From: an uncultured archaeon
GTDB taxonomy: Archaea > Asgardarchaeota > Jordiarchaeia > Jordiarchaeales > Jordiarchaeaceae
Reading direction: 5' to 3'
Length of the DNA: 32,000 bases
Assembly (NCBI GenBank): GCA_964510585.1
Contig: CAZECW010000090.1
Location: 4,185-36,184, forward strand
Under the pieces are notes generated by a model. The model was not told where the DNA came from. It did no database searches and saw only the letters and a list, made by a program, of their open reading frames with translations. Each line of letters begins with the position of its first letter. The first letter of the stretch is position 1. Positions 17,634-25,827 of this stretch are shown piece by piece. Position numbers and translations under genes: made by a program.

Positions 17634-19022
17634 GTGGCTGACATAAAGCCGAAATATTTCACGGAACAAGAAATTATTGATTTATTGTCCGAAGTGACTG
17701 ATGAGGAACTACAAAACTGTCATAAGCACGAGCTTGTCCCCTCAAAAGACGTCATTCTGTATCAAGGTATACCCGGTGAGGCCAGAGTTAAGGATTCCAA
17801 GGGTAAAGAGTACATTGATTTTACATCCCAAGCTTGGACTCTGGGAATAGGCTACATACAGCAAGACGTCATGTTTGCAGCCATGGAGCAGATGAAACGC
17901 TTATCTCACGCCCGCAACCAGTTCCAGACGATTCCTCGTATAAAGCTTGTCAACAAACTTTCACAAATTGCACCCGGCAACCTGAAAAACGTGGTGTTAA
18001 ACACTCAAGGAGGCTCTGTGGCAGTTGAAGTGGCTCTAAAATTAGCAATGGTGAACAGACCAGCGGACCAAGATATTTTCATAACTATGTGGGGAGGATA
18101 CCACGGCAACACTCTCGCCATGATGGCTCCCACACACTACATGCCCCTAGTAGTTCGATACCGCGGCTTCGGAAGAGAACACTTCGTTAAATCCCCCTTC
18201 CCCTACTGCTACCGATGCCCCTTCGGCGAAAAAGACATCTCCGAATGCGGAAATCTATGTCTAACCATGCTTCAAAAAACCATAGATTACGGTTGCCAAG
18301 GATTGCCCATAGGCGTGCTACTTGAACCCATTCAGGGACCAATGGGTGAAGTGCCGGCTCCCCCCGAGTTCATAAAGGGTGTCAGAGAGGTTTGCGATAA
18401 GAACAATCTCCTACTTATCTTCGACGAGTCCCAAACTGCATTCGGTAGAATAGGCACAATGTTTGCAGCTGAATACTATGAGACAGTCCCCGACATTATG
18501 GCTCTCACTAAGGCTCTGGGAGGTGGATTCCCCATGGGCGCAACACTAGCCAGCGAGAAACTGGGAATGTTCACCCCCGCAGAACAGCATAGCACCTTCA
18601 GCGCAAACCCCGTCTGCTACGCCGCCGCACTGGTAAACTTGATGCTCATAGAAAAGCTGGACTTGCCCAAGAGAGCAGAAGAAATGGGAAGATACCTAAT
18701 GAAAAGATTTCTGGAGCTTCAGGAGAAATACCCTATAATGGGTGATGTGCGGGGCATTGGACTATTCCAGGGAGTGGAACTGGTAAAAGACCCCAAAACA
18801 AAAGTTCCCGCAAACACCGCAGCAGAAGAATTCGTAAATGAAGCCCTCAAAAGAGGATTAATACTCGACCTAAGCCAACCAGTAATAACCATACATGGAG
18901 ACTTTTATAGAAACACCCTAACCATAAAACCACCACTAGTAATTACACGAGAACAAGTTGACCGCGCTCTAGAAATTTTTGAAGAATGTCTACAAACAGT
19001 TACACCCCTCATAAAAGCGTAA
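17634..19022 (+). CDS. Class III PLP-dependent aminotransferase
   Basis: GKEYIDF, GGYHGNT, EPIQG, LIFDESQTAFGRIG, DIMALTKALGGG (PLP Lys), HSTFSANP, GDVRGIGL and PPLVIT motifs. Confidence 0.93.
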   Translation: MADIKPKYFTEQEIIDLLSEVTDEELQNCHKHELVPSKDVILYQGIPGEARVKDSKGKEYIDFTSQAWTLGIGYIQQDVMFAAMEQMKRLSHARNQFQTIPRIKLVNKLSQIAPGNLKNVVLNTQGGSVAVEVALKLAMVNRPADQDIFITMWGGYHGNTLAMMAPTHYMPLVVRYRGFGREHFVKSPFPYCYRCPFGEKDISECGNLCLTMLQKTIDYGCQGLPIGVLLEPIQGPMGEVPAPPEFIKGVREVCDKNNLLLIFDESQTAFGRIGTMFAAEYYETVPDIMALTKALGGGFPMGATLASEKLGMFTPAEQHSTFSANPVCYAAALVNLMLIEKLDLPKRAEEMGRYLMKRFLELQEKYPIMGDVRGIGLFQGVELVKDPKTKVPANTAAEEFVNEALKRGLILDLSQPVITIHGDFYRNTLTIKPPLVITREQVDRALEIFEECLQTVTPLIKA

Positions 19023-19027
19023 AAAAC

Positions 19028-19050
19028 TAAACCCCTCACCTTCCTTTTTT
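19028..19050 (+). terminator. C-rich/oligo-T terminator-like tract
   Basis: TAAACCCCTCACCTTCCTTTTTT just after the aminotransferase stop. Confidence 0.4.
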
Positions 19051-19224
19051 CAATTCTCCAACCGAAAAAATGAGACTCCTGCCTCCCCCTAATTGTTCTA
19101 AACAGCTTGAAAATCTATTTATATTTCGAAGATACAATTAAGAAATTATTTAAGAAAGAAGTTGGTAAATACTTTAGCAAAAAATTGAAAAATTTAATCC
19201 CTAAGGATTCAGGAGGCTAAAGAG

Positions 19225-23096: not shown

Positions 23097-23546
23097 GTGA
23101 CGGGTGATGTTGTTAGGGAGATTGTTGATGTGATGTGTGTTGTTTTTAATAGTCAGAGTCAGGATTTTAAGGATAGGATAAAGGGTATTACTGGTGGTTT
23201 GCGTAGGGTTTATCGGTTTGATGTTACTGACCTTGGTCTTTCTTTTGATGTTGAGCTTACTTCTGGGGGAGAGGTTGTTGTGCATTGGGATTTGCTTCCT
23301 GGGGAGCCGAATTTGGTGGTTTCTTCGGAGGCTTTGGTGTTTGATGGTGTGATGACTCAGAGGGTTAATCCTATGAAGGTTATGTTGTTGCGGAAGGTTA
23401 AGATTAAGGGTTCTCTTATGGAGGTTTCCAAGTTTAGGCCTATTCTTCCTTTGTTGAGTCCTTCTTATAAGAAGGCTAGGGTTCACATTGCGGAGAAGTA
23501 TGGTTTGCAAGAGGCTTTGAAGAAGATGGATGAAGCGAAAATTTAG
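23097..23546 (+). CDS. SCP2 sterol/lipid-binding domain protein
   Basis: VYRFDVTD..FDVEL..GEV..EPNLVVSSEALVFDGVMTQRVNPMKVMLLRKVKIKGSLMEV resembles the SCP2 LDPMKAFM.GKLKI.GD motif. GTG 23097 is preferred because the upstream extension to 23031 is low-complexity G/T sequence. Confidence 0.78.
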   Translation: MTGDVVREIVDVMCVVFNSQSQDFKDRIKGITGGLRRVYRFDVTDLGLSFDVELTSGGEVVVHWDLLPGEPNLVVSSEALVFDGVMTQRVNPMKVMLLRKVKIKGSLMEVSKFRPILPLLSPSYKKARVHIAEKYGLQEALKKMDEAKI

Positions 23547-23829
23547 TGCAAACAGTTAATGTTCTCGGGCATGTGAGGTTGTGCGGGGTTCTTTTTGCCC
23601 AAGGGTTTTTGTATTGTGGGATTTTTGTTTATTGTTGGTCTGTGGGATTGTTTGTAGAGGTTGGTTTTTGGTTTTATACCTGATTTTTTGGATGCTTTTT
23701 TATGTTTTTGTGGGTTTTCTGGTGGTGTGTCTTGTTTTTGTGTGGCTTTTTGGTTTCAAAAGTTTAAAAAGGGTGAGGGGCTTACTGGTGAATTTGTCTG
23801 TGGTTTTGTTGATAGCTTTTTGATGGGTT

Positions 23830-25827
23830 ATGGTTATGTGGTTATTTTTTGTGAGGTTTCTCAGGGGCTTGTATAGGGTTCCTTGCAGGTATCCTTTTGG
23901 TTACCTGATTGTTTTAGTGGAGGTTGTTTTTGTTTGCTTGTTTTTTTGGGGTTTATCTCCTTTTGAGGGGAGTGTGGTGGTTTCTCTTTTTCCTTTTGGG
24001 TATTTTTTCTTTTTTAGTTTGGTTGTTGATGTTGTTTTTTGTTTTTTTCTTTTTTCTAGGGACTCTTTTGTTTTTCCGGAGCTTGGTTTGAGATGTAGGG
24101 TTAATGTTTTTTCGGCTATTGTGGCTGTTACCTTGTTGCTGTTGCTGTTGTTGGTTTATCCTGTTTTGTGGGGTTTGGCGAATCATCTCTTGGTGATAAG
24201 GGCAACGGTCAATCAAATGTTTTTGTCTTATGTTCTCTCTCTGCCCGTTGCAGTTGATTCTTTTAGGCTTTACAATTTGTATCGGGGGGTCAATGGTTTG
24301 GTTTTGTACTCTATGGGTTTTATTGCTTCTAGCACAGATGTTGTGGATAGAATTTTCTGGATTGTCAGCATTCGGTACTTTTATCTTTTGCCCGCGACTG
24401 AGAGGTTGAGTCGGGTTCGGTTTTTGAGGTTTCCTGTGGCTGTTGCTCCTGCTGTTTATTTGGTGGAGGTTTTTCAGTTGGCGGGTTCTCCGCTTACTTA
24501 TATGGTTTCGGCGATTGTTTATTGTGTGGTGATACCTACCCTTATTTTTGAGGCTGTAGCTTTGGGCACTTCGACAACTTTTCGCTCTGGTGAGGTTAGG
24601 GTTCGGGTGAGTCAGTTTGATGTTATCCGCAGGTTGATAACTTGGGATATCTTGAGGGATACTGGTCTGGAGGATACTTTGTGTTTTGCCGATTTTAGAG
24701 AAACCTTCAGGGTGTGGACTGGAGTGGTGGCGTTTAAAACGGGGGAGGGGGAGGCTTCCTTGATGGTGGTTCCTTCGCTGCACCCTGGGCCTTTACTTTC
24801 TTTTTGTGGTTCTCTGCTTTCCTATAAGATTTCTGAAGCTTTGAGGGAAAATTATGAGTTAGTAATGGTTCCCCACTCTCCAAGTACGCATGATTTTAAT
24901 CCTTCGTCGGCTTCCGAAATATATAGGATTGTGGAAGCGGTTCGCGGCTTTCTGGGGGGTGGGGATATGGAGTTTTACGAGTTTGCTTCGCCCATTTTTT
25001 CTGAGGAGAGTGTTGGAAGGGTGGGAAGATTGCGGGTCTTTTGTCAGGCTTTTAGTAATGGTGTAGACCAAAAGGTGCTAGTTTTCTGCGACCTGTCCGA
25101 CGAGAACAACGGCGACATATCATATGGTGTAGGAAATTATCTCATTGAAACCGCTAAAAATGTGGGAGCAAAAGACGCCATAATTATCGACAAACACTTT
25201 TATCCCCACAGGGAGGAGCGTCCCCTCTACATGGAGGATCCCCTTGCTGAGGAGCTAAGAGCACTGGTGGAGAAGGCTGTGGGTAGAGCTTTGCAGTCCA
25301 GAAAAGAAAGGTTTTCGTTTGTGGGGTCCAAAATCACTAGGCGCGAGATAGAATCAGAGTGTGGAGAACTCGCTAAGGCTATAGGAAGGGATGGAATATC
25401 CATATTTGTTATAGAGTTGGAAAAAAGTAGGGAAAAATCTGCCTACATTCTCATAGATGCAAACACGGTGGAGCCCAAGTTAGGGGAAAAAATATTGAAG
25501 CTTTTTCTCAAAAGTGGATTCAGGGAAGATAATACTATAATTATGACCAGTGACACCCACCAAGACTTACATTTTCTAAAGTCGTTCGGCTCAAAAGAGG
25601 AAACCCACGAACCAACCCTTAAAATAATTGAGAAACTTTTAGGCCAACTATCAAAACCCCGAAAAGCGTCGGTATCCCTGAATCAAGTGCTGAGCGAAGT
25701 GGATGTGTGGGGTCCGCTAAACGGAGAACGCTTTTTCACAGTCCTACTCAAAGCTTTCCCTAGAGCCTTATCCGCCCTACTACTCTACTGGTTGGTGGCC
25801 TTTATACTATCCCTACTTACACTCTAG
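23830..25827 (+). CDS. DUF2070 family membrane protein
   Basis: N-terminal multi-TM region, LHPGP, VPHSPSTHDFNP, IDKH and TSDTH motifs, C-terminal TM helix. The start is uncertain (possibly TTG 23869). Confidence 0.75.
   Translation: MVMWLFFVRFLRGLYRVPCRYPFGYLIVLVEVVFVCLFFWGLSPFEGSVVVSLFPFGYFFFFSLVVDVVFCFFLFSRDSFVFPELGLRCRVNVFSAIVAVTLLLLLLLVYPVLWGLANHLLVIRATVNQMFLSYVLSLPVAVDSFRLYNLYRGVNGLVLYSMGFIASSTDVVDRIFWIVSIRYFYLLPATERLSRVRFLRFPVAVAPAVYLVEVFQLAGSPLTYMVSAIVYCVVIPTLIFEAVALGTSTTFRSGEVRVRVSQFDVIRRLITWDILRDTGLEDTLCFADFRETFRVWTGVVAFKTGEGEASLMVVPSLHPGPLLSFCGSLLSYKISEALRENYELVMVPHSPSTHDFNPSSASEIYRIVEAVRGFLGGGDMEFYEFASPIFSEESVGRVGRLRVFCQAFSNGVDQKVLVFCDLSDENNGDISYGVGNYLIETAKNVGAKDAIIIDKHFYPHREERPLYMEDPLAEELRALVEKAVGRALQSRKERFSFVGSKITRREIESECGELAKAIGRDGISIFVIELEKSREKSAYILIDANTVEPKLGEKILKLFLKSGFREDNTIIMTSDTHQDLHFLKSFGSKEETHEPTLKIIEKLLGQLSKPRKASVSLNQVLSEVDVWGPLNGERFFTVLLKAFPRALSALLLYWLVAFILSLLTL

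Follow-up and report, generated by a model that had tools for sequence, protein, structure and literature searches.

Midway through a gene for a RuBisCO-like protein (RLP) in a hot-spring Asgard archaeon, nearly all freely variable positions change from A/C to G/T. The change lies at ~21.6 kb in the 32,000-nucleotide stretch of DNA that was analysed (the window), where silent positions, read as third-position skew, are A/C on the + strand to the left and G/T to the right. This flip can be thought of as a wall between two opposite skew domains, each kept up by a transition pressure that is persistent, locus-anchored and strand-directed and would be tied to the processing of genes or transcription units (a reading to which we give a probability of about one half). 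The landscape to which the wall belongs, a kilobase-scale amino/keto skew across the genome, is specific to this Jordarchaeia/Freyarchaeia genus. It is real DNA, near saturation at silent positions and spacers, and amino-acid composition is dragged along with the skew.

The flip and its surroundings

In 500-nt windows across 21.5 kb, GC skew goes from -0.41/-0.33 to values between +0.41 and +0.56, and AT skew from +0.46 to values between -0.40 and -0.58. A recount agrees with the initial annotation, which had found 51 of 60 bases to be A/C at 21061-21120 and 55 of 60 to be G/T at 22921-22980; the skew is also, as had been said, of amino-to-keto (transition) type, with the G/T-rich strand running 5' to 3' outward on both sides. 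It is carried by third codon positions and spacers, while positions 1 and 2 of the FGGY kinase and RLP genes stay within ~0.15 of zero. Skew at the site far exceeds chance (keto skew of 1-kb windows has a standard deviation of 0.11 for the genome vs 0.03 for shuffled sequence), and the RLP step, 0.80 with 1.5-kb arms, is the largest of the entire 3.78-Mb assembly. Around the flip, skew is back to zero within ~3.5 kb.

The left skew domain (14273-21550) contains, by Pfam assignment, a five-gene + strand operon ending in an aminotransferase and an FGGY carbohydrate kinase, then a spacer and the 3' part of RLP; in a 250-nt profile its + strand keto skew falls steadily from ~+0.2 to -0.55. The FGGY kinase (19225-20823, + strand) uses A/C-ending codons, with a third-position keto skew of -0.77, and the FGGY-RLP spacer (20824-21206; A 196, C 104, G 25 and T 58 on the + strand) has a skew of -0.57. 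RLP itself is an intact gene of 434 codons (21207-22511, - strand; PF00016, PF02788), and its nearest solved structures in a PDB sequence search are RLPs of DK-MTP-1-P enolase type. Codons 1-280 (21672-22511) are A/C-ending, with exceptions that are mostly ATG and TGG and a coding-strand third-position skew of -0.90 (+0.90 on the + strand); codons 281-330 (21522-21671) are mixed (+0.04); codons 331-434 (21210-21521) are G/T-ending (+0.75). These values bear out a switch at about codons 280-320, as do the codon endings that had been reported: all 20 of the codons PKFGIQGVRQVLGIKDRPIL end in A/C, and the 20 codons HAHPDGPRAGAISFRQAIDA comprise 14 ending in T, one in G, five in C and none in A.

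To the right, the divergent RLP/SCP2 spacer (22512-23030) is G/T-rich on the + strand (+0.54). It also holds 2.5 copies of a 14-nt unit (22557-22591); one related strain has a copy fewer. SCP2 (23031-23546, + strand) is G/T-ending, with a third-position skew of +0.87 and positions 1 and 2 also shifted (+0.23 and +0.18). A second spacer on this side of the flip stands at +0.58, and the right skew domain ends in the gene for a DUF2070 membrane protein (23830-25827, + strand), whose first half is G/T-ending (+0.69) and whose second half is neutral (+0.01). The flip is independent of gene orientation, as had been proposed, in that the + strand FGGY gene is A/C-ending and the + strand SCP2 and DUF2070 genes are G/T-ending. 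The fade of ~3 kb on each side holds numerically, but the left arm is a composite of operon tail, 383-nt spacer and RLP 3' part.

Conservation of the flip and the skew landscape of the genome

The flip is conserved at the matching locus in related genomes. Four congeners (G002-G005) switch at RLP codons that match those of the window's genome (G000), which makes five genomes in total; G005, which comes from wetland soil, is a closed Freyarchaeia genome (CP147778.1). RLP orthologues of at most 69% identity, from more distant Jordarchaeia and from other Asgard genomes, have no flip. In G003 and G004 the switch is at ~21548-21560. Because the zone of codons 281-330 is mixed in G000 and still all A/C-ending in G004, whose RLP protein is 99.5% identical, the wall has shifted recently in G000, by ~50 codons; ~40% of silent sites have changed where it moved. 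At the RLP switch of G002 and G005 there are hairpin-forming inserts of 30 to 89 nt. The FGGY-RLP spacer is 0.38 kb here, 1.36, 2.56 and 5.3 kb in congeners and 5.9 kb in two related strains, and FGGY keeps its A/C-rich end in congeners with 1.4 to 5.9 kb inserted between the two genes. The G005 FGGY orthologue has a third-position skew of -0.62, and skew jumps up directly after its stop codon.

Third-position skew of genes is correlated between G000 and G005 (r = 0.66), and its sign is retained in 94% of 405 strongly skewed 60-codon segments, even though the species are far enough apart that silent sites should be saturated. For 1234 orthologue pairs, the skew difference at positions 1 and 2 can be predicted from that at position 3 (r = 0.59). 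Because positions 1 and 2 follow in this way, and because spacers are as skewed as third positions, the pressure probably acts on DNA and not on codon choice. Polarised changes in the FGGY-RLP region (three taxa, with G005 as outgroup and ~3 kb comparable) run 41 against the skew vs 6, a result more in line with biased fixation or an episodic process than with a point-mutation bias that acts steadily; constraint may act on the against-skew sites that remain.

Sharp A/C-to-G/T jumps in G000, of which that in RLP is the strongest, number 42 upward vs 3 downward with 1.5-kb arms, and 44 vs 6 with 500-nt arms. At codon level there are 68 upward vs 27 downward in G000 and 54 vs 19 in G005. The mean jump profile is a symmetric dipole that is gone by 3.5 kb. 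Along genes, third-position skew drops from +0.09 to -0.22, a trend that holds in 75% of them, and the step at a gene junction is largest between convergent genes (-0.15 to +0.16) and smallest between divergent ones (-0.04 to +0.06). Jumps often fall within conserved genes, and their positions recur in gene families: in 6 of 15 ABC ATPase genes the switch comes just after the Walker B motif LDEPT, at a distance of a few codons (vs 1% of random interior sites), and the paralogues that share this switch codon are 26-57% identical in amino-acid sequence. Comparable recurrences are found in small GTPases, AAA ATPases, TBP, UvrA and an aldolase. The A+T fraction at intragenic jumps is 0.49-0.53 vs ~0.56 in their flanks. 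Jumps have no link to indels or gene splits in a congener (3 of 44 vs 2.1 expected), protein hydrophobicity does not account for them (r = 0.15), and no common sequence motif was seen at them by eye.

What might hold the wall

Each domain would be kept by a locus-anchored pressure that converts A and C to G and T on one strand. At the RLP locus one domain would consist of the A/C-rich aminotransferase-FGGY tail, the spacer and RLP codons ~325-434 antisense, and abutting it the other would take in RLP codons 1 to ~320, the divergent spacer, SCP2 and half of DUF2070. The combination of C-to-T and A-to-G may signify deamination, or G.T mispairing in patch synthesis, reached by way of single-strand exposure or repair synthesis that is coupled to transcription or recombination, and the pressure would not be linked to the position of a replication start. 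The same-codon walls of anciently diverged paralogues are unaccounted for by the strand-exposure models stated here.

An assembly chimera, or a recombinant RLP with halves of different origin (both raised by the initial annotation), is next to impossible: contigs of run X3 do break at 21585-21614, but two contigs, X1 (4.7 kb) and X6 (24 kb, from an independent study), span the site and contradict a join at ~21.6 kb, one of the five genomes that carry the flip was manually closed, and the two RLP halves rank nine orthologues identically by identity, which refutes separate origins. The initial annotation had preferred a non-canonical bidirectional replication initiation site. In its favour, the G/T-rich strand leads outward from the centre, which is the polarity of a bacterial-type origin, gene orientation has no influence on the skew, and in G005 a weak local upward flip at ~1.640 Mb adjoins one orc1/cdc6 gene. 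On the other hand, 42 strong sites of the same sense, plus many weaker ones, in 3.8 Mb count against an origin, and fork polarity would persist along a replichore, whereas this skew vanishes within 3.5 kb. Neither ORB-like repeats nor an A/T-rich unwinding element was found at the site, and no orc1/cdc6 gene lies near the flip, as had been noted. In G005 the cluster of three orc1/cdc6 genes, a switch in gene orientation and the only replichore-scale skew switch and maximum all fall at 1.64-1.68 Mb, 0.5 Mb from RLP at 2.175 Mb. That replichore switch (the comparison covers 2.55 of 3.58 Mb) has an amplitude of only ~0.03-0.05, in keeping with the claim that the RLP flip is much steeper than ordinary replication skew. 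Its polarity is opposite to that of the RLP flip, an argument that assumes a G005 origin at the orc1/cdc6 cluster; the bacterial skew convention would place the origin on the opposite side of the chromosome. Jumps are also found at one shared codon in distant paralogues elsewhere in the genome, which is not expected of a positional origin. The proposal is disfavoured and must be considered highly improbable.

It is unlikely that ~21.6 kb marks the centre of divergent transcription, perhaps cryptic, or of an R-loop that persists, an alternative that the initial annotation had also given, with single-stranded non-template strands deaminating (C to T, A to G) and the effect decaying as transcripts end. 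Such a process would match polarity and transition type to standard single-strand deamination chemistry and would give a transcript-like decay length of 1 to 3 kb; the hairpin-forming insert that interrupts RLP at the switch in G005 and G002 makes an internal start for the distal part thinkable, and several strong jumps elsewhere resemble non-coding RNA genes (by eye only). Yet the step is weakest at divergent pairs, where promoters lie, and strongest at convergent pairs, where none are expected; jump sites are not A/T-rich, unlike archaeal promoters; antisense transcription would have to dominate over RLP codons 1-320 in five species; the shared switch codon of six ABC ATPase paralogues with different neighbours is left unexplained; and the cool habitat of G005 means that heat-driven deamination is not required. 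Slightly less likely still is a hot spot of repeated nicks or double-strand breaks at the switch, from which strand-biased repair synthesis runs outward and enriches the new strand in G/T through G.T mispairs. A sharp centre with decay on the scale of resection and repair tracts, nine derived changes clustered in ~70 nt at the G000 domain edge, small inserts exactly at the switch in two species and an excess of skew-eroding changes on tip branches, which fits episodic resetting, all suit such breaks, and the placement of jumps at the most conserved motifs is reminiscent of how homing endonucleases choose their targets. However, deaminated 3' tails left by 5'-to-3' resection would produce the opposite polarity, so that the model rests on an assumed polymerase bias; moreover, by eye the jumps share no motif, they are not generally associated with indels or splits in the congener, the inserts are single-copy and belong to no mobile family, and no endonuclease gene was identified. 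Selection on RNA or codons, in the form of a translation-speed or RNA-structure programme at fixed protein structural positions, is distinctly unlikely. Switch positions are intrinsic to genes and recur in distant paralogues and orthologues, against-skew changes on tip branches are expected under fixation bias, and the third-position amino/keto split is also the split between pairing and wobble (A/C-ending codons would be read by Watson-Crick pairing with archaeal tRNA sets). But spacers are skewed like silent sites and continue the DNA-strand sign across oppositely oriented genes, amino-acid composition moves with the skew, same-strand genes are opposite in sign (FGGY vs SCP2 and DUF2070), and a codon bias of 90-97% in ordinary enzymes is far above usual translational selection.

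Comparison with known skew systems

GRINS are repeats longer than 500 bp and more than 80% identical that are linked with gene conversion and occur mainly in bacterial polyketide synthase clusters (PMC8256042). Their skews (correlated G>C and T>A, or the reverse) occupy third positions of functional genes and change sign within 1 kb; they measurably affect amino-acid composition, by a mechanism that is unknown, and single-copy skewed regions are mentioned too (PMC8256042). The skew domains of the Asgard genus are alike in having intense, correlated GC and TA skews that are abrupt, strongest at third positions and felt in amino-acid composition (PMC8256042). That the RLP locus is itself such an element, a skewed repeat that gene conversion has spread among homologous sequences, is barely conceivable: blastn finds no repeat of 18000-24700 anywhere in the genome, the ABC paralogues with a common switch codon have a DNA identity of 44-62% and identical runs of at most 16 nt, and the phenomenon spans the genome and is not restricted to repeats. 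It also differs from GRINS in its one dominant step direction, in its occurrence in an Asgard archaeal genus and in reaching ~0.9 at silent sites.

With replication-associated skew the landscape shares the axis of G+T vs A+C, independence of gene orientation and the step polarity of bacterial origins. In contrast, replication skew (bacterial GC or keto skew, archaeal oriC) is weak, extends over whole replichores and switches at one or a few sites, whereas here values of 0.5-0.9 fade over 3 kb at dozens of sites. Mammalian origins and promoters have skew jumps in which T>A plus G>C skew steps up sharply and then declines gradually in a saw-tooth, with an amplitude of ~0.1 and domains of hundreds of kb; transcription-associated mutational asymmetry distinguishes transcribed from non-transcribed strand, and its skew follows gene orientation. 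The sharp upward T>A plus G>C steps are common to the mammalian jumps and those described here, but the latter give opposite signs to genes on the same strand and are weakest at divergent promoters. Kataegis-type clusters are one-strand changes of one chemical type over kilobases that arise as single somatic events in an enzyme-specific sequence context. The RLP flip is comparable in its one chemical type, one strand, kilobase extent and strand switch at a defined point, but represents an evolutionary steady state that is filtered by selection and conserved between species.

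Anatomy of the flip in the RLP gene

The RuBisCO-like protein (RLP) gene (21207..22511, minus strand, 434 codons) contains the boundary, or wall, at which two strand-skew domains meet; such domains form a landscape that spans the genome and is specific to the lineage. In the composition profile, 20.5-21.5 kb has GC skews of -0.41 and -0.33 and an AT skew of +0.46, and 22.5-24 kb has GC skew of +0.41 to +0.56 and AT skew of -0.40 to -0.58; across the flip the two skews agree in keto sign (G+T vs A+C). The base counts of the initial annotation are reproduced on recounting (51 of 60 A/C at 21061-21120; 55 of 60 G/T at 22921-22980), as is its statement that all 20 codons of PKFGIQGVRQVLGIKDRPIL end in A or C. 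The 20 codons of HAHPDGPRAGAISFRQAIDA, said to favor T or G endings and to lack A, end in T (14), G (one), C (five) and A (none). Its gene calls and strands are confirmed by Pfam: class-III aminotransferase (+), FGGY kinase (19225..20823, +), RuBisCO large-chain family (-), SCP2 (23031..23546, +) and DUF2070 (23830..25827, +).

The skew is located in third codon positions and in spacers. Third-position keto skew of the coding strand is -0.77 in FGGY, +0.87 in SCP2 and +0.69 in the first half of DUF2070, so that genes of the same (+) orientation carry opposite signs. RLP changes sign internally, from -0.90 in codons 1-280 (21672..22511) through +0.04 in codons 281-330 (21522..21671) to +0.75 in codons 331-434 (21210..21521), and the claimed independence of gene direction is upheld. 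(In RLP and FGGY the third-position skew of 0.75-0.90 compares with at most 0.15 at positions 1 and 2; nearly all exceptions in the A/C part of the RLP alignment are ATG and TGG codons.) The three spacers have + strand keto skews of -0.57, +0.54 and +0.58. In a 250-nt profile the first domain falls steadily from +0.2 at 14.3 kb to -0.55 at 21.0 kb; the second begins at the switch, reaches its maximum of +0.64 in the divergent RLP/SCP2 spacer and is at about zero by 25 kb.

The FGGY-RLP spacer (20824-21206) is a variable spot: 383 nt in the genome under study, 1.36 kb and 2.56 kb in two congeners (G003 and G004), and, in the closed Freyarchaeia genome G005, 5.3 kb that encompass five genes. Two related hot-spring strains (runs X4 and X6) have 5926 nt in place of 20840-21213. 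The left arm of the flip is composite: at congener FGGY-RLP distances of 1.36, 2.56 or 5.3 kb the 3' end of FGGY is still A/C-rich and RLP still flips internally, and in G005 the skew jumps up directly past the FGGY stop codon.

RLP has the RuBisCO large-subunit N-terminal and catalytic domains (PF02788 and PF00016; Pfam), and a PDB sequence search matches it best to solved 2,3-diketo-5-methylthiopentyl-1-phosphate enolases (E = 2.5e-81). By these domains and closest relatives, it is a predicted form IV protein of the DK-MTP-1-P enolase type. An Rfam search finds no known RNA gene anywhere in the window, the switch included. The divergent RLP/SCP2 spacer contains 2.5 perfect copies of a 14-nt unit, TTTTTATGCTTTTA, at 22557-22591, where a related strain (run X6) is shorter by 14 nt; a promoter element of variable copy number is one possibility. 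The skewed DNA at 19338-24783 is nearly free of stop codons on both strands and harbors spurious long reading frames without a Pfam match (for example 23953-24783, minus strand, 276 aa; 23034-23510, minus strand, 158 aa), by which gene finders could be misled.

Inheritance and movement of the wall

The genome assembly comprises 3.78 Mb in 217 contigs, the window being positions 4185-36184 of one of them (C90). The suspicion of a chimeric join is refuted by Logan contigs of 4.7 kb (from a likely source run) and 24 kb (from a related strain in an independent study) that bridge the switch; these contigs, together with the same flip in congeners, rule out an assembly chimera. In a further run (X3), contigs end and restart at the switch (21585-21614) with loose ends that are Nextera adapter sequence, and the extreme change in composition may hamper assembly there. 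Gaps in the cover of this DNA by runs X4 and X3 carry no evidential weight.

The relatives available for comparison are Jordarchaeia MAGs and the closed 3,576,204-bp chromosome CP147778.1 of 'Freyarchaeota archaeon SRVP19' (G005). The RLP orthologue of each of four further genomes in the genus has its flip in the same position. Third positions are mixed in orthologues of 69% identity (a different family within the order) and of 50-62% identity (other Asgard lineages). The source of CP147778.1 is wetland soil (PMC11291895), and high temperature is therefore unnecessary for the skew pattern. The proposal that the two halves of RLP might have separate origins also fails: both rank all orthologues alike (identities of the two halves 0.99/1.00, 0.98/0.98, 0.87/0.81, 0.88/0.87, then 0.72/0.60 down to 0.60/0.59), and a recombinant RLP is rejected. 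A genome of the neighboring family (G006; first 200,000 nt of contig C1) has no RLP flip; in this stretch the standard deviation of kilobase-scale keto skew is raised to 0.091, with two sharp jumps up and one down. This may reflect a weaker version of the phenomenon that predates the genus. No description of such skews or domains in Asgard archaea, or in archaea generally, was found in the literature.

The skew is persistent and locus-anchored. Third-position skews of genes correlate between the genome under study and G005 (r = 0.66), and sign is kept in 94% of 405 strongly skewed segments. The wall is not tied to an exact base. It lies at about codon 320-335 of RLP in G003, G004, G005 and a further congener, G002; in the genome under study codons 281-330 are already ~40% converted at 99.5% protein identity to G004, so that conversion of these 50 newly invaded codons has been fast. 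Polarized changes among the genome under study, G003 and G004 (outgroup G005) run against local skew in 41 cases vs 6, over the ~3 kb compared. For that ~3 kb the tentative conclusion is maintenance by fixation bias or by episodic, tract-like resetting, not by steady point-mutation bias.

Two of the congeners have hairpin-forming inserts at the switch: 30 nt with one in-frame stop codon (TAA) in G002, and ~89 nt in G005, where the gene is then in two reading frames. The folds have 9-bp stems in both cases (z = -4.7 for a 146-nt stretch of G005, L010:1385-1530; z = -1.2 for G002, L004:2430-2540), and no bulge-helix-bulge shape is evident in either. The inserts are single-copy within the congener DNA examined and are rejected as a mobile family.

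A genome-wide landscape of skew domains

Keto skew of 1-kb windows has a standard deviation of 0.11 across the genome (vs 0.03 when shuffled). With 1.5-kb arms, the 3.78-Mb assembly contains 42 upward and three downward steps of more than 0.4, the RLP site being the largest (0.80). The mean profile around the 42 jumps is a symmetric dipole that reaches zero by 3.5 kb. According to gene calls made for this analysis and validated on the window, 30 of the 42 are intragenic, at all relative positions within genes. At codon level, A/C-to-G/T switches outnumber the reverse in the genome under study (68 vs 27) and in G005 (54 vs 19). Third-position skew in 60-codon windows is continuously distributed (standard deviation 0.30 vs 0.13 expected), which places RLP at the far end of a continuum and not in a class of its own.

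Along genes, third-position skew falls on average from +0.09 to -0.22. Where genes adjoin, the step is greatest in convergent pairs (-0.15 | +0.16), intermediate in tandem pairs and least in divergent ones (-0.04 | +0.06); these statistics favor a tie to gene ends over one to promoters or origins. No A/T-rich promoter or unwinding element is present at the jumps (A+T is 0.49-0.53 at intragenic jumps vs ~0.56 in the flanks). Hairpin potential at jumps is -14.8 vs -12.0 kcal/mol, a small difference expected from base composition, and is dismissed as a jump feature. ARAGORN finds six tRNA genes in this 96% complete genome, a number too small for them to serve as markers of strong transcription. 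Introns are present in four of the six, one intron being 564 nt long; most of the other tRNA genes have presumably been missed owing to unusual or multiple introns.

Wall positions are partly gene-intrinsic. Six of the 15 ABC ATPase genes of the genome under study switch a few codons past the Walker B motif LDEPT (vs 1% of random interior sites). The switching genes lie on both strands and in differing operon contexts, and those with a common switch codon are only 26-57% identical in protein and 44-62% in DNA, with identical runs of at most 16 nt. In G005, only one or two ABC ATPase orthologues switch after Walker B. Walls also recur in small GTPases, two AAA ATPases, TBP, UvrA and an aldolase. 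The explanations sought for recurrent walls yielded no A/T-rich element, link to indels, clear residue signal or effect of hydrophobicity. (Specifically, three of 44 intragenic jumps coincide with indels or gene splits in a congener, vs 2.1 expected; seeding of skew by hydrophobic protein composition is rejected as weak, with r = 0.15 and membrane proteins lacking a G/T-ending bias.) Residues near 122 intragenic jumps are only mildly enriched (Pro and Gly 1.36-fold ahead of the jump), which leaves a link to ribosome stalling speculative.

Candidate forces and known systems

The polarity of the flip had suggested a bidirectional replication start, a reading for which little room is left by the distance to orc1/cdc6, polarity, number of sites, decay, and lack of ORB-like repeats or an A/T-rich element. 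The reported absence of orc1/cdc6 nearby stands (TIGR02928 has no match on the window's contig), as does that of ORB repeats: a search of 20600-23100 for ORB-like or tandem repeats gives only low-complexity matches caused by base bias. The assembly contains no full-scoring orc1/cdc6, and the initiator-gene test rests on G005, in which three full-scoring genes lie at 1.637, 1.681 and 1.683 Mb (loci L018 and L019) and RLP lies at 2.175 Mb. Cumulative keto skew of G005 (2.55 of 3.58 Mb examined) peaks at 1.64-1.68 Mb, with a G/T-rich left side and an A/C-rich right side. The orc1/cdc6 genes are also at the maximum of cumulative GC skew and at a point of gene-orientation divergence. The + strand gene share is 0.36-0.54 to the left of 1.64-1.68 Mb, 0.56-0.62 for the next 600 kb to the right and 0.44-0.53 past 2.2 Mb; gene orientation hence diverges from this region, as it would around an origin. 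The replichore effect at silent sites and spacers is ~0.03-0.05, and its leading strand is the A/C-rich one, a polarity opposite to that of the RLP step; ordinary fork passage would therefore write a skew ~10 times weaker than that at RLP and of the other sign. Neither the polarity nor the size of the RLP step matches the replichores (G005, 2.55 of 3.58 Mb), and in place of the one or few replichore-long switches expected of an origin there are 42 strong same-sense jumps.

Bidirectional replication of G005 has been inferred from cumulative GC skew (PMC11291895). Bacterial convention would put its origin opposite the orc1/cdc6 cluster, and the polarity argument, taken alone, depends on this choice; an origin at the cluster would make the leading strand A/C-rich and so reverse that convention. 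Skew-based origin prediction is misled by the domains: in G005 the skew has its maximum, not its minimum, at orc1/cdc6. With 42 sites, ~3-kb decay, initiator genes 0.5 Mb away and an opposite, ~10-fold weaker replichore skew, a replication start at the RLP switch is highly improbable.

The skew force acts at the level of DNA: skew is as strong in spacers as at silent sites, and in 1234 orthologue pairs between the genome under study and G005 (median identity 78%) the third-position skew difference predicts the difference at positions 1+2 (r = 0.59). SCP2 and DUF2070 are 62-64% identical to their G005 orthologues (most neighbors are at 75-88%, one other gene at 57%), are far more G/T-skewed than these, codon positions 1 and 2 included, and are shifted in composition; skew pressure appears to speed up protein change in both. 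Selection on RNA or codons is, beside these observations, a doubtful source of the domains. Chemically, amino-to-keto transitions of one strand are indicated, and the geometry of a wall is compatible with two processes leaving it or two ending at it. Divergent transcription or an R-loop at the site would have such geometry but is an unlikely reading. The domains are set apart from transcription-associated asymmetry by a skew sign that does not track gene direction at the RLP locus and by steps that do not appear promoter-centered (they are weakest between divergent genes, strongest between convergent ones and intragenic in 30 of 42 cases). A hot spot of breaks or nicks followed by biased repair synthesis would likewise send processes from the wall, and tract-like resetting would be in keeping with it; it is ranked below transcription or R-loops, and above RNA or codon selection and, last, a replication start. 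The reading placed ahead of all these, at a probability of about one half, is that the domains would be kept by a pressure that is not replicative but linked to repair or to the processing of genes, favored because junction statistics speak for a tie of the steps to gene ends.

A more specific proposal, held tentatively and at somewhat less than even odds, is that an undescribed strand-directed process (for instance polar tracts of repair or conversion, or targeted deamination) rewrites kilobase domains almost wholly to A/C vs G/T, with walls that are codon-sharp, heritable and set inside conserved genes, and that it also underlies the skews of bacterial GRINS. If so, it would be a new genome-shaping force in archaeal relatives of eukaryotes, strong enough to fix nearly all silent sites and to shift protein composition, and would leave, in unculturable organisms, a natural record, legible from sequence only, of which strand is differently treated at each locus. 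In practical terms, skew domains produce long spurious reading frames on both strands, may break contigs and can bias Asgard phylogenies and tests of gene transfer.

GRINS are defined by repeat and gene-conversion features, with skews (PMC8256042). The window differs from them in having no duplicated region of >500 bp at >80% DNA identity (blastn of 18000-24700 against the whole assembly returns only the self-match) and no sign of gene conversion (ABC paralogues are 44-62% identical in DNA, with identical runs of at most 16 nt), and GRINS in the strict sense are rejected. The type of skew matches: GC and TA skews pass the GRINS threshold of 0.15 (mean absolute value) and are mutually correlated, and within functional genes the third codon position carries the most skew, amino acids being affected as well. 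Should the dedicated strand-directed process prove real, the GRINS skews of antibiotic-producing bacteria might be explained too.
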